Shown here one piece after another: positions 1-62,668 of a DNA stretch of 64,000 nt. The stretch is from Escherichia phage EP02SG, in sequence record PQ301181; one strand, 5' to 3'. Below the pieces are notes generated by a model. That model made no database searches and was not told where the DNA came from. It saw only the letters and a list, made by a program, of their open reading frames with translations. Every line of letters begins with the position of its first letter. Positions within the stretch are counted from its first letter, which is position 1. The position numbers were made by a program, and so were the translations under genes.

Positions 1-1839
<1,839 letters not shown>

Positions 1840-20846: not shown

Positions 20847-21327
20847 TAAAAAGGTAATGATTCCTAAATTAGGGCTCAAACATTATAATCTTTTAAAGGA
20901 CGTTAAAGGCCCTGATGAAAACATGAAAATCTTAGCTGATTCTATTTGTAAAAATATGAGTCCCGCAGATTTTGATTTTGCATGTCTACACATATTGGAA
21001 TTTAATAACAAACTTAAGTCTGAAGTTGAAAAAGATGGATTCACTTATAAACTAGATGACGTCTATGTATGCCAACGAACAGAATTCCAATTTCAAGGTA
21101 ATACTTTTTATTTTAGACCCCCAGGCAAATTTGAACAATTCGCTACAATCAGTGAAATGCTATCAAATTGCTTAATAAAAGTTAATGACGAAGAGAAAGA
21201 AATTTCTTTCCTTGAGATGCCTGCTTTTGTAATCAAATGGGCAGAAGACCTTTCGACAACTATTGCTATTCCAGGCCCTAATGGCCCTATTAAGGGTATA
21301 GCAGAAATTATTGGATTGCTTGAATGA
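20794..21327 (+). CDS. 28: Baseplate hub distal subunit gp28
   Basis: 177-aa ORF, same length as T4 gp28; overlaps the 3-prime end of gene 27 by 53 nt in another frame. Confidence 0.85.
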
Positions 21328-32468: not shown

Positions 32469-32837
32469 TTATGCAACTTTAATCCAATTGTCTAAATTTA
32501 AAACACCTTTGGCTTTCATTTTTTCGATCAGGTTATCTGCTGTAATGCGTCCATTTTGATACCATGTGACATCTTCAGAGTAACCAGTTTCTTCGTCAAC
32601 ATATGTTTCTGAGCGAATTTTACCAGTAATAATAGTTTTTAATTCGTATGTGTCACCAGTGAAAAAGTTTGCTAACACAATTTTCCAAGAGAAATCATCA
32701 GAAGGACCTTCAGGGGTCATACAACCTACGAACTCAAATTGCTCTTTGTATAACATCCATTGGAATTCTTTAATTTCGATAGCTTTATAACCGTCGTGGT
32801 CTTTACATTTGATGTATGAGTTCAGATTGATTTTCAT
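32469..32837 (-). CDS. Hypothetical protein (122 aa)
   Basis: ATG start; early promoter 32879-32907 upstream. Confidence 0.55.
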   Translation of the reverse strand: MKINLNSYIKCKDHDGYKAIEIKEFQWMLYKEQFEFVGCMTPEGPSDDFSWKIVLANFFTGDTYELKTIITGKIRSETYVDEETGYSEDVTWYQNGRITADNLIEKMKAKGVLNLDNWIKVA

Positions 32838-32878
32838 TTTATTCTCCGATTGTTTTATTGATTAGGTGGTACAAGTCT

Positions 32879-32907
32879 ATAGTAACACATCCTACAGGAG
32901 AGTAAAC
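32879..32907 (-). promoter_or_regulatory. Early promoter
   Basis: Minus strand reads GTTTACT - 16 nt - TACTAT, upstream of ORF 32469-32837. Confidence 0.5.
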
Positions 32908-32938
32908 ATCTTTTTTAAACTTTTTCTGCCCTAAACGC

Positions 32939-32962
32939 ACAAAAGGGAGACCGAAGTCTCCC
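32939..32962 (-). terminator. Terminator after the small basic ORF (minus strand)
   Basis: GGGAGAC-CGAA-GTCTCCC preceded by AAAA on the plus strand; identical 18-mer to three other sites. Confidence 0.7.
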
Positions 32963-32967
32963 TAAAA

Positions 32968-33147
32968 TTATGCAACAACCTTTCCAAAACGAGAAGCATC
33001 ATCTCGAAGAACTGCACGTGCTCTGCGCATGATCTTCTCAACTGTTTGATTAATACGAGAGTTCGACCCACGCTTGTATCCAGCGCGTTTAGAGGTACCA
33101 TCAACTTTCTTTTCAACTGCTTTCTTTGCTTTAGCTTGTTTTGCCAT
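32968..33147 (-). CDS. Small highly basic protein (59 aa), possible nucleic-acid binding
   Basis: Hand-translated MAKQAKAKKAVEKKVDGTSKRAGYKRGSNSRINQTVEKIMRRARAVLRDDASRFGKVVA; not in the ORF track (below 60 aa); followed by the conserved UUCG terminator. Confidence 0.45.
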   Translation of the reverse strand: MAKQAKAKKAVEKKVDGTSKRAGYKRGSNSRINQTVEKIMRRARAVLRDDASRFGKVVA

Positions 33148-33415
33148 TATAAATTCTCTTTAAATGAAAATGCAGGACTTATTGACATTGCCTGCGCAAG
33201 CCCTCAAGGGGAACATAGGTTTTGGATATTTAACGACAGGATAACCATAAACCCGTCATCATACCAACCACGACTTAAACAGATAACCCTTTTCTGACGC
33301 GTGATAGTACAAAATACATTCAAGAGGTACACCGTAAAATTGACGGGGCTGTACTTCTAAAACATACCGATTCGCAAATCGATAATCAGACAATTCGACG
33401 GCTCCTCGATTTAGC

Positions 33416-33664
33416 TTACTTCAGGGTAATAATAAAATGACGTACTGCTTTACGTGCGGCAGAAGCCAGAGGCTTAGCATATTTCAATTCATCTTTCTGG
33501 ACCAGGATATCGCGAAGATCGGCTTGTGCCGGATTCAGATGTTTGAAATACTGTAAGATTTCGAGGGCTTCGGCTTCGACATCAATAGATGCACCGTAAT
33601 TTTCGTGGCCATTATTCCATGCATGGCGTTGCAGTTCAAGAGCGTGTTGTAATTGTTTAATCAT
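33416..33664 (-). CDS. rIII: rIII lysis inhibition accessory protein
   Basis: 82-aa ORF adjacent to gene 31; size and sequence match T4 RIII as recalled. Confidence 0.8.
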   Translation of the reverse strand: MIKQLQHALELQRHAWNNGHENYGASIDVEAEALEILQYFKHLNPAQADLRDILVQKDELKYAKPLASAARKAVRHFIITLK

Positions 33665-33780
33665 TTTAAATTCTCAATTCGAGATAATATTTAGTAGCCA
33701 CGTTCGTCTGAATTTCACCTTCTTTCGACAGGTCTCTCAGTTGTAGGCTACCGCTTAGAAGAGTGTTCTCTTCATATAGT

Positions 33781-33788
33781 TATTTATA
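33781..33788 (-). promoter_or_regulatory. Candidate late promoter (minus strand) between gene 31 and rIII
   Basis: TATTTATA on plus strand directly after the gene 31 stop, ~117 nt upstream of rIII. Confidence 0.3.
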
Positions 33789-34121
33789 TCACTTATAAAG
33801 ACACGGAATAGCTTTATAGTGGCATGTTACGAATTTCTGTTTAATTTCTTTAGGTTGTTTAAGTCCCAAAGCCACAAATGGATGTGGAACATTTCGAATT
33901 TGTCCAACTGGTAGTGAAGTCAAATCACCGACTTCAACAAAACCTTCAGGAACATCAGGACCTACAGAATGAACTACACATAGTTCAGGAACTTCACCTT
34001 GAACACGTTTACCAATCACAAGTCCTGATTCTGTAACTTCTTCATCACCTGCTTGAGCGGGTTCAGAAACCAGAATGACATATTCACCAACAGCACGAAT
34101 TGGGAGTTGTACTTCAGACAT
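33789..34121 (-). CDS. 31: Co-chaperonin for GroEL (gp31)
   Basis: 110-aa ORF essentially identical to T4 gp31 as recalled ([29 protein letters not shown]...). Confidence 0.95.
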
Positions 34122-34178: not shown

Positions 34179-34487
34179 TTACATAAGAAGCAAACGTTCC
34201 ACCGGAGTACCATCAACCGAAATTACTTTATCAAGGCGGAAAGAACGCCACTGGCCTAACTTGGTATCGAATGCTCGAACTGATTCACGAGGTTCATAAC
34301 GAACTTCTGTTGCCGGATTGTTATTTTCATATTTGACTTCAAGTTCATCGCGCGAAGCAAACATAGTGCGTACCTCGCCGTTAGCCTTTTCAAATACAAC
34401 ACAATGAACGCCTACAGACAGAATAGTTTTAATACGTTCACGAAGAACCATAGTTTCTTGTTCAGTTAAAATCATATTATTCACCAC
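34179..34487 (-). CDS. Hypothetical protein (positional equivalent of T4 31.1)
   Basis: 102-aa ORF between cd and gene 31. Confidence 0.6.
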   Translation of the reverse strand: MVNNMILTEQETMVLRERIKTILSVGVHCVVFEKANGEVRTMFASRDELEVKYENNNPATEVRYEPRESVRAFDTKLGQWRSFRLDKVISVDGTPVERLLLM

Positions 34488-35058
34488 AAAAGTTTCGGAT
34501 TTGTTCCCAATTCAGAGAACGAAGATTATTACGAGAGTACTGAATTACTTCAATACCGGCTTGTTTTAGAATGTCTGCCCAATTTTCAGGAGATCGATCG
34601 TATAATTCTGCGTATACAACCTTTTTAATACCTGACTGCGTAATAGCTTTAGTGCAATCAGGACATGGAGAAAGCGTAGTATATAACGTAGCACCTTCAA
34701 TAGAATTACCTTTACGAGCTGCAAACAAAATTGCATTCAATTCTGCATGGATTTCATTATTAGCAGACCATGCACTATGAGCGGCCCGATGTTCTTTAGC
34801 CAAAACAAAATTATCTGCCCGTCCAAATGCTGTAGTGCCTTCTTTATGTCCAGCAACGATGACCGGGCTTGGTTTATTCTTCAACCAACCATTTTCGGAT
34901 GCATGTTCACAGCAGTTAACGCCACCTGCGGGTGAGCCATTATATCCAGTAGAGATAATGCGTCCATCTTTTTCAATGACGGCACCAACTTTCCATGAAC
35001 AACATTTTGATTCTTGAGAAATCAAATAAGCAATTTGAAGATATGTGCTAGCTTTCAT
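34477..35058 (-). CDS. cd: dCMP deaminase (Cd)
   Basis: 193-aa ORF, same length as T4 Cd; zinc-deaminase motifs HAELNAI and SPCPDC. Confidence 0.9.
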   Translation of the reverse strand: MKASTYLQIAYLISQESKCCSWKVGAVIEKDGRIISTGYNGSPAGGVNCCEHASENGWLKNKPSPVIVAGHKEGTTAFGRADNFVLAKEHRAAHSAWSANNEIHAELNAILFAARKGNSIEGATLYTTLSPCPDCTKAITQSGIKKVVYAELYDRSPENWADILKQAGIEVIQYSRNNLRSLNWEQIRNFCGE

Positions 35059-47711: not shown

Positions 47712-47952
47712 TTTTAAGTCCTTTAATAACTTTTTGGATTTGTGATTTAGAAGAAACCAAATCAGTCTGGATTTGACAACCATCGGTTGGGTCAAATATT
47801 ATAACACAAACGCGAGGTTTTGTTGTGTATCGCCCGGACAAATCAAATGCGTCACCAATGAATTCGGCCAAATCCGGATGGTCTAAATTAACTGAAGTAT
47901 AAACTTCATATCCGACATCAGCGCCTTGAGAGTATTCAACAACAACATTCAT
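47704..47952 (-). CDS. Hypothetical protein (positional equivalent of T4 frd.1)
   Basis: 82-aa ORF, 8-nt overlap with frd start. Confidence 0.5.
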   Translation of the reverse strand: MNVVVEYSQGADVGYEVYTSVNLDHPDLAEFIGDAFDLSGRYTTKPRVCVIIFDPTDGCQIQTDLVSSKSQIQKVIKGLKNA

Positions 47953-47954
47953 AA

Positions 47955-62460: not shown

Positions 62461-62494
62461 AACGTTTTATTCATTCCACTTAATTGATAAGAGT

Positions 62495-62524
62495 ATAGTA
62501 CCATTATCAGTGTTGATTGTAAAC
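62495..62524 (-). promoter_or_regulatory. Early promoter for asiA
   Basis: Minus strand reads GTTTACA - 17 nt - TACTAT, ~35 nt upstream of the asiA ATG. Confidence 0.55.
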
Positions 62525-62668
62525 GGCTTTTTCTACGCTTTTAACGTAATTGGTATAGTCTTCCTGTTCGTACGAGTGTAAGGCCAAGAACGGAACTAAT
62601 AGTTCATTATAGACTAAAGCCTCACGCTCACGTTCGGCCTCTACTACGTTCTGAAGATTATGACTCAT
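62507..62668 (-). CDS. Hypothetical small protein (53 aa from internal ATG), weak call
   Basis: Track ORF 62507-62722 shortened to its internal ATG; its 3-prime end overlaps the asiA promoter, so it may be spurious. Confidence 0.3.
   Translation of the reverse strand: MSHNLQNVVEAEREREALVYNELLVPFLALHSYEQEDYTNYVKSVEKAVYNQH

Follow-up and report, generated by a model that had tools for sequence, protein, structure and literature searches.

The 268-nt gap that separates the rIII stop codon from the start codon of 30.9 in this T4-type Escherichia phage (33148-33415, minus strand) holds conserved, covarying RNA secondary structure on the strand of its flanking genes, and it contains no promoter, no terminator and no conserved open reading frame (ORF). 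Positions are those of the window, by which we mean the whole stretch of 64,000 nucleotides that was analysed (record PQ301181). The explanation that we favour, and to which we give an even chance, is that the gap is a cis-acting structured leader of 30.9 on an rIII-30.9 transcript, accompanied by accessory RNA cassettes. A minus-strand mRNA would run from rIII into 30.9 and end at a hairpin after 30.9, and a constant block of 116 nt at the 3' end of the gap would form the cis-acting 5' leader of 30.9. In its terminal hairpin, the purines of the Shine-Dalgarno (SD) region would pair with an upstream pyrimidine run, which would limit translation of 30.9 from read-through transcripts; the hairpins before it, whose loops and linker are invariant, may be determinants of stability or processing, or a binding site. 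The 5' two thirds of the gap (modules A and M) would be accessory structured cassettes, in a slot that holds another element, X, in other T4-type phages.

The window belongs to an RB69-like (Mosigvirus) T4-type phage. A megablast search with 32900-33700 returned 761 phage records, the best being Mosigvirus isolates at 98-99.8% identity, with RB69 itself at 92.9%. Four records named as Campylobacter phages (e.g. A110a, MG065689) also carry near-identical T4-type rIII/gap sequence, probably as contamination or mis-assigned assemblies. The genes around the gap are arranged as follows.

34477-35058, minus strand: cd
34179-34487, minus strand: 31.1
33789-34121, minus strand: gene 31
33416-33664, minus strand: rIII, 82 aa, upstream neighbour of the gap, with its stop codon at 33416-33418
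32968-33147, minus strand: gene 30.9, 59 aa, very basic, downstream neighbour of the gap
32469-32837, minus strand: 30.8

The initial annotation had singled out this gap as an unusually long unannotated space, and rightly so: no gene is annotated in it, nor in the equivalent gaps of RB69 (263 nt) and T4 (244 nt; NC_000866 130541-130784). The name 30.9 for the small basic ORF is that of the RB69 annotation. In a crude tiling of the window with non-overlapping ORFs, the median spacing was about 9 nt and 12 of the 84 spacings exceeded 100 nt, which places the gap among the two longest intergenic stretches (largest other spacing, 279 nt). Further long stretches left uncovered by this crude tiling were 21045-21323 (279 nt, flanked by ORFs on opposite strands), 62461-62657 (197 nt) and 47796-47954 (159 nt). 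The gap had also been called GC-richer than its surroundings, a difference that is not significant, as its 40.3% compares with 37.9% (sd 3.6%) for 268-nt windows and lies at the 75th percentile.

The same description had the gap free of ORFs longer than about 18 codons, which was wrong. Three longer ORFs lie within it and a fourth extends into it.

33164-33244, plus strand: gap ORF of 26 aa
33204-33332, minus strand: gap ORF of 42 aa
33259-33393, minus strand: gap ORF of 44 aa
33046-33297, plus strand: ORF of 83 aa extending into the gap

These ORFs of 26-44 aa are one reason to consider that the gap codes for an unannotated small protein on either strand. Others are a 62-aa ORF in T6, a 68-aa ORF in T2 that is annotated in one T2 record, a GAGGAG 8 nt ahead of a TTG in the window, and an antisense ORF starting MKMQDLL in the window, T4 and T6. 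None of the gap ORFs is conserved, however: frame, start and stop differ among the window, T4, T6, T2 and SHFML-11, near-identical relatives included, and the TTG is CTG in T4 and RB69, with a stop three codons later. Four single-base indels, GACG(A)GG, CCTG(G)TC, CAAAA(A)CC and TTAAA(A)GAG, fall in the most conserved part of the gap. The pattern of a protein-coding gene, with conserved frame, start and stop and with indels in multiples of three, was thus not found, and a PHROG search with the two minus-strand gap ORFs gave no family. In T4 a 72-aa extended form of 30.9 is possible, and T4-type records carry this form as a successor to the old '11.1 kDa protein' entry; in the window, one of the four indels puts it out of frame. 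Since single-base indels occur in the conserved block and the ORFs differ between relatives, coding is excluded, and we give the small protein almost no weight. The varying reading frames of close relatives and the single-base indels speak equally against a degraded pseudogene or decayed ORF, which had been another suggestion.

Gaps of 203-337 nt separate rIII from a 30.9-like gene in T4, RB69, T6, T2, Moon, KMB19, KPV15, Serratia phage 4S, Cronus, PEi26, EnC15 and Potts1. Besides Serratia phage 4S, they cover the genera Tequatrovirus, Mosigvirus, Dhakavirus, Moonvirus, Karamvirus, Jiaodavirus, Kanagawavirus, Roskildevirus and Marfavirus. The gap is absent from Acinetobacter phage ZZ1, and in a distant rIII-carrying phage contig (L068) the 30.9-like gene directly follows rIII. 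Alignment of the relatives revealed a modular gap which, read along the minus strand, consists of A, M, H1, H2, H4 and a hairpin that pairs with the SD region. The constant block is its last 116 nt (33148-33263), containing H1, H2, H4 and the SD hairpin. This block is 99.1% identical to that of T4, against 85% for rIII (65% at third codon positions), 92% for 30.9 and 69% for 30.8; compared with JS98 it reaches 95.5%, with rIII at 81% and 30.9 at 77%, and compared with T6 it is again 99.1% identical. It occurs in 769 phage records, once per genome, in 756 of them at 90% identity or more. That a non-coding block surpasses the coding sequence on either side in conservation speaks for a function and not for hitch-hiking.

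Constraint on modules A and M is weaker than on the block. Natural deletions have removed A from LF82-7 and L046 and both A and M from W143, and T4 has neither M nor any other element in its slot; M was present in 228 phage records. An unconserved deletion scar, the outcome that had been set as refuting, does not describe the conserved 3' block; it describes in part the 5' two thirds, where some natural isolates have lost or exchanged the sequence. The modules of the window are listed here in their order along the minus strand.

33324-33407, minus strand: module A, an irregular stem-loop of about 84 nt with GAGG...CCTC outer pairs
33365-33384, minus strand: apical hairpin of module A, TATCGATT-TGCG-AATCGGTA
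33262-33309, minus strand: module M, a hairpin with the inner stem CAGA/TCTG
33218-33263, minus strand: module H1, with TATGATG, the stem GACGGG/CCTGTC and the conserved loop TTTATGGTTAT
33195-33213, minus strand: module H2, a short hairpin CCC(C)-TTGA-GGG followed by CTTGCG
33172-33195, minus strand: module H4, with the stem GCAGG/CCTGC and the conserved 14-nt loop CAATGTCAATAAGT
33154-33170, minus strand: SD hairpin TTTTC-ATTTAAA-GAGAA, in which a pyrimidine run pairs with the purine-rich SD region of 30.9

Among the options first put forward for this gap, RNA structure is the one that was supported, as conserved secondary structure with compensatory base changes was found on the minus (gene) strand. 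The folding energy of either strand was no better than that of shuffled sequences (z -0.1 to -1.1), so that the case for structure rests on comparison and not on stability. Within E. coli phages the block is nearly invariant, which makes covariation there uninformative. H1 was present in every enterobacterial Tevenvirinae genus examined, and its stem is followed by the conserved single strand CGTTAAATATCCAAAACC. Over 16 sequences from several genera, 84% of its cells were paired and its covariation score was 0.453 against 0.166 for shuffled alignments, none of the 500 shuffles reaching the observed value; slid-partner controls scored at most 0.17. For module A, RNAalifold on 15 M-type gaps gave compensatory changes at four pairs (columns 58/111, 62/107, 69/84 and 70/83), and the single-sequence fold agreed with the consensus. 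In module M, the stem CAGA/TCTG becomes CAGC/GCTG in LF82-7 and L046. In these alignments, compensatory changes support A and H1 and, more weakly, M.

Moving towards 30.9, the H2 stem reads CCC/GGG, CCTC/GAGG or GCC/GGC in other genera. At the H4 position, single-sequence folds gave a hairpin in every genus; its stem takes six or more distinct sequences, those found elsewhere including GAACTGG/CCAGTTC, GGGAGC/GCTCCC, GGCGA/TCGCC, GAGAGGT/ACCTCTC and GGCTCTA/TAGAGC. The SD hairpin TTTTC/GAGAA is short, with five weak pairs, and was predicted in both the minimum free energy and the centroid folds of the window and of T4; a pyrimidine run faces the SD purines in all genera, as TCC/GGA or CCTC/GAGG in single-sequence folds. 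For H2, H4 and the SD hairpin these other genera provide weaker evidence, because single-sequence folds always find some hairpin. Modules A and H1 and the SD hairpin contain G-U pairs, which in the opposite strand would read as A-C mismatches, and this identifies the structure as that of the minus-strand RNA. By eye, we also noticed a candidate A/U-rich pairing of AUAAGU in the H4 loop with AUUUAU just ahead of the AUG.

The order of the modules is not fixed. H1 stands before X in KPV15, 4S and PEi26 and after X in SHFML-11, Moon and EnC15, and in Karamvirus H2 directly follows rIII. This counts against the leader that we favour, as modules that change their order between genera fit autonomous units better than one integrated leader. 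Simple occlusion of the SD region would, moreover, leave the invariant loops and linkers unexplained, and these rather suggest recognition by a nuclease, the ribosome or a protein. Other phages have an extra hairpin, H3, with a bulged U and a CUUA-type loop, which in T4 and the VR-type phages lies directly after the rIII stop codon. Its sequence (GGAGATTCACTGCCTTAGTGTGAGCT / GGTGATTCGCTACCTTAAGTGCGGCT) has a covarying stem of CAC/GUG, CGC/GCG or UGC/GCA, and its position differs between genera. H3 is missing from the window, where only its GCTAAA tail remains. Copies of H3 were located as follows.

L004 (T4), about 1745-1775, minus strand: H3
L043, L044, L045 and L056, just after the rIII stop codon: H3
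L010, about 1535-1565: H3

The initial annotation had also proposed promoter activity, from a plus-strand TTGACA and a minus-strand TTTTAC/TACTAT arrangement. The TTGACA lies at 33182-33187, one base from where it had been placed, and the sequence 17 bases downstream of it is CAAGGG and not a -10 element; the two minus-strand hexamers are 24 nt apart. A scan for sigma-70-like sites (-35 and -10 hexamers with a spacer of 16-18 nt and at least 9 of 12 matches) found none on either strand of the gap, the only sites being at 33684-33712 and 33611-33639 where 2.4 would be expected by chance. T4 middle, MotA-dependent promoters have a TGCTT core about 12 nt upstream of TAnnnT, and neither strand of the gap contains this core. 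The window has more copies of the T4 late promoter TATAAATA than expected (19 against 7.5), none of them in the gap; the nearest is at 33781-33788 on the minus strand, upstream of rIII. This copy and the sigma-70-like site at 33684-33712 both lie in the 124-nt spacer between gene 31 and rIII (33665-33788). rIII reportedly has early, middle and late promoters, with which the promoter-like sites of that spacer are consistent.

These scans bear on the reading in which the conserved block is a signal at the DNA level, for example a promoter that serves 30.9 and the genes beyond it, or a sequence bound by a DNA-binding protein. Very high conservation of the primary sequence, loops included, would suit such a signal, and in T6, T2 and HX01 a weak sigma-70-like site, TTTACG-17 nt-TACTAT, does occur in modules A/M. 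In the window, however, the spacing of this T6-type site is 23-24 nt, and in T4 its -10 element is deleted. Together with the lack of all three promoter types in the gap, and with compensatory changes and G-U pairs that indicate an RNA of one strand, this leaves a DNA-level signal very improbable.

The terminator scan, for a GC-rich hairpin followed by a T run, found no intrinsic terminator inside the gap. Downstream of 30.9, one more feature was read from the sequence.

32945-32966, minus strand: GC-rich hairpin GGGAGACTTCGGTCTCCC followed by TTTT, after 30.9

This hairpin is probably a transcript end, judging from its sequence. The simple terminator scan did not flag it, its weak Rfam alignments were only to terminator hairpins of sRNA families, and the PhAPEC2 record lists a 'terminator' feature under the match. 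With no promoter or terminator between rIII and 30.9 and a terminator-like hairpin only after 30.9, we infer an rIII-30.9 transcript that would carry the gap as RNA.

No known RNA family accounts for the gap. The covariance-model search that had been recommended gave no Rfam 15 family at gathering score in the whole window, and at E<=10 it gave only chance-level matches in 32700-33900, the sole match in the gap being to SNORD53/92, with 15 bits where the threshold is 46; six related loci likewise had no match at E<=10. ARAGORN predicted no tRNA or tmRNA gene in the window or in five related loci. The 5' flank of H1 (33254-33262, minus strand, GTATGATGA) resembles a box C motif (RUGAUGA) and gives weak chance matches to C/D-box snoRNA models; no matching box D was seen, and we regard the resemblance as coincidence. 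Cleavage sites of the RegB endoribonuclease are a single-stranded GGAG followed by an A-rich tract, with the consensus GGAGRAYARAA (PMC1702504). The only GGAG of the gap reads GGAGCCGTCGA, departs from this consensus and lies inside the stem of module A, and a RegB site was rejected.

In many relatives the place of M is taken by X, an element of 141 nt that was found in SHFML-11, JS98, VR5, VR26 and all non-E. coli genera, including Moon, KPV15, PEi26 and Cronus. X starts with (t/a)a(g/a)CGGCAAGTGCATGCTACC and ends with GCTAACGGTGTGCAACAGATAAGAG; like M it stands between A (or the rIII stop codon) and H1, on the same strand and with the same flanking modules. It was found in 405 phage records, once per genome and at 80-100% identity; phages of Escherichia, Shigella, Yersinia or Salmonella account for about 180 of these. 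The consensus fold of 15 distinct X sequences has 43 pairs in seven helices, with a GNRA-capped hairpin; 98.1% of the cells are paired and 19 pairs show compensatory changes. None of 500 shuffles reached any of the five measures, and slid controls gave 29-43% pairing. X had no match to Rfam even at E<=10 on 201 nt and none in the bacterial genome collection, and its 14 metagenome matches all lay in T4-type contexts, 11 with the rIII motif upstream and 3 with too little upstream sequence to tell. From these comparisons, X is a candidate new class of structured RNA. The window's own slot holds M and no X: covariance model R1 (141 positions, 43 pairs) had no hit in the 64 kb at E<=10 with default filters, and with filters off its best score in 32800-33800 was 2.9 bits (E=0.8). 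Copies of X in related loci are listed below.

L007, 720-880, minus strand: X
L017, about 735-875: X
L008, about 1458-1600: X
L010, about 1565-1705: X
L013, 701-836: X
L014, 701-835: X
L015, 701-832: X
L018, 701-835: X
L016, 701-841: X of phage PKM.Lu.22.1 (OQ829281, Grimontviridae), 84.5% identity

Within one genus, M occupies the slot in some isolates (L043, L045) and X in others (L044, L056), so that the two behave as alternative cassettes in one slot. The idea that M is a decayed remnant of X was rejected, as local alignment was no better than with shuffled M (p 0.4-0.9). This result also touches the reading that the gap is evolutionary debris, the scar of a lost X or a lost gene, conserved through close kinship or recombination. 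The natural isolates that lack A or M suit it, as do a slot that holds M, X or, in the remaining records, neither, and the contig in which the 30.9-like gene follows rIII immediately. On the other hand, M is not detectably derived from X, compensatory changes occur in A and M as well, the 3' block surpasses the coding sequence on both sides in conservation, and H1 and H2 are kept with compensatory changes across genera whose rIII proteins are 63-78% identical. We consider debris improbable, and it would apply mainly to A and M.

The copy in PKM.Lu.22.1 is the only X found outside the Straboviridae. It lies away from rIII and 30.9, between a gene of unknown function upstream and a sigma-factor gene downstream, and an H3-like hairpin and a strong terminator come after it. 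This arrangement suggests that X is able to stand alone or has been transferred horizontally. It is also one of the grounds for a second RNA reading, in which processing of the whole gap, or of only M or H1 together with its conserved single-stranded linker CGUUAAAUAUCCAAAACCUAUGUU, gives a stable small RNA. Such an RNA would act in trans, on RNAs or proteins of the host or the phage, and X may act likewise in relatives. Loops and a linker that do not vary are reminiscent of sRNA seed regions, the modules appear autonomous in that their order changes, and the adjacent slot can hold X, whose complex fold is closed by a terminal helix of its own. Yet no promoter or terminator bounds a unit in the gap, its folding stability is unexceptional, and a search of the 64-kb window for paralogues of the modules or long complementarity returned chance-level matches only, the H1 and H2 motifs each being unique in the window. 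We rate this small RNA as rather unlikely.

A broader form of the idea, which we hold tentatively and consider less probable than the leader, is that the rIII-30.9 spacer is a dedicated non-coding RNA locus in which constant H1-H2-H4 elements and a slot of alternative cassettes (M, X) yield processed, functional RNAs. Such RNAs would be cut from the rIII-30.9 transcript and, for example, be bound by gp30.9 or be aimed at a host factor, and they would do more than tune 30.9 translation. Under the cis-acting leader that we favour, gp30.9 is possibly itself the leader-binding protein, which is conjecture. gp30.9 belongs to phrog_1427, a family of unknown function, and is 61-90% identical across 24 aligned homologues, including those of Klebsiella, Serratia, Pectobacterium and Yersinia phages. 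AlphaFold predicted a disordered basic N-terminus and one long helix at low confidence (mean pLDDT 68), and sequence searches of Pfam, PHROGs and the PDB assigned no function. Several GenBank records label the protein '1,4-alpha-glucan (glycogen) branching enzyme, GH-13-type', and others call it 'putative 11.1 kDa protein' with a start placed inside the gap; both labels look like annotation artefacts. Our literature search on the gap sequence, the locus and structured RNAs of T4-type phages found no description of the region. The only relevant citation was to Driukas and Nivinskas (2003), who reportedly studied the in-vivo expression of rIII and 30.9.

The gap exists, unannotated, in T4 itself, the reference lytic phage, and it offers a defined target for genetic work in T4, T6 and RB69. 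Nothing in the neighbourhood is as conserved as its 3' part, and the slot beside that part carries the strongly covarying X in about 400 phage genomes. A structured gap also explains the inconsistent annotation of this locus, from the '11.1 kDa protein' and the spurious small ORFs to the 'glycogen branching enzyme' label on 30.9. If the reading as a dedicated RNA locus were true, these would be the first functional regulatory or effector RNAs of T4-type phages outside the tRNA cluster.

Among known systems, the T4 genes e, soc, 49 and I-TevI have inhibitory RNA helices at their translation initiation regions, with a late promoter inside the structure that gives an unstructured late transcript (PMC3014915). 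The gap resembles them in its predicted SD-containing helix just upstream of the start codon, on a transcript that would read through from rIII. It differs in having no internal late promoter TATAAATA or other promoter, and in being a much longer, multi-hairpin leader with invariant loops. The T4 genes 32 and 43 have autogenous translational operators (PMC3014915), in which a conserved structured element of the 5' leader lies beside the ribosome binding site of a nucleic-acid-binding protein and is conserved across T-even phages. The gap is similar in the placing and conservation of its element, and differs in that binding of gp30.9 to its own leader is conjecture. The stable RNAs rnaC and rnaD of T4 (species 1 and 2) are encoded in the tRNA cluster and processed with the tRNAs. 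They share with the gap the character of a non-coding RNA of a T4-type phage, and they were rejected as relatives of the gap or of X, since a comparison by eye alone showed no sequence resemblance. In E. coli operons, REP-type intercistronic hairpins can stabilise the message upstream of them or adjust the relative expression of the two genes, and each genome has many copies of the REP element. The gap likewise would place hairpins between two cistrons of one transcript, and its modules, unlike REP elements, are single-copy in the window. We rate the gap feature as working like the known T4 leader structures, that is, as a conserved cis-acting mRNA structure that lies outside the curated RNA families, and X is more novel than the window's own feature.
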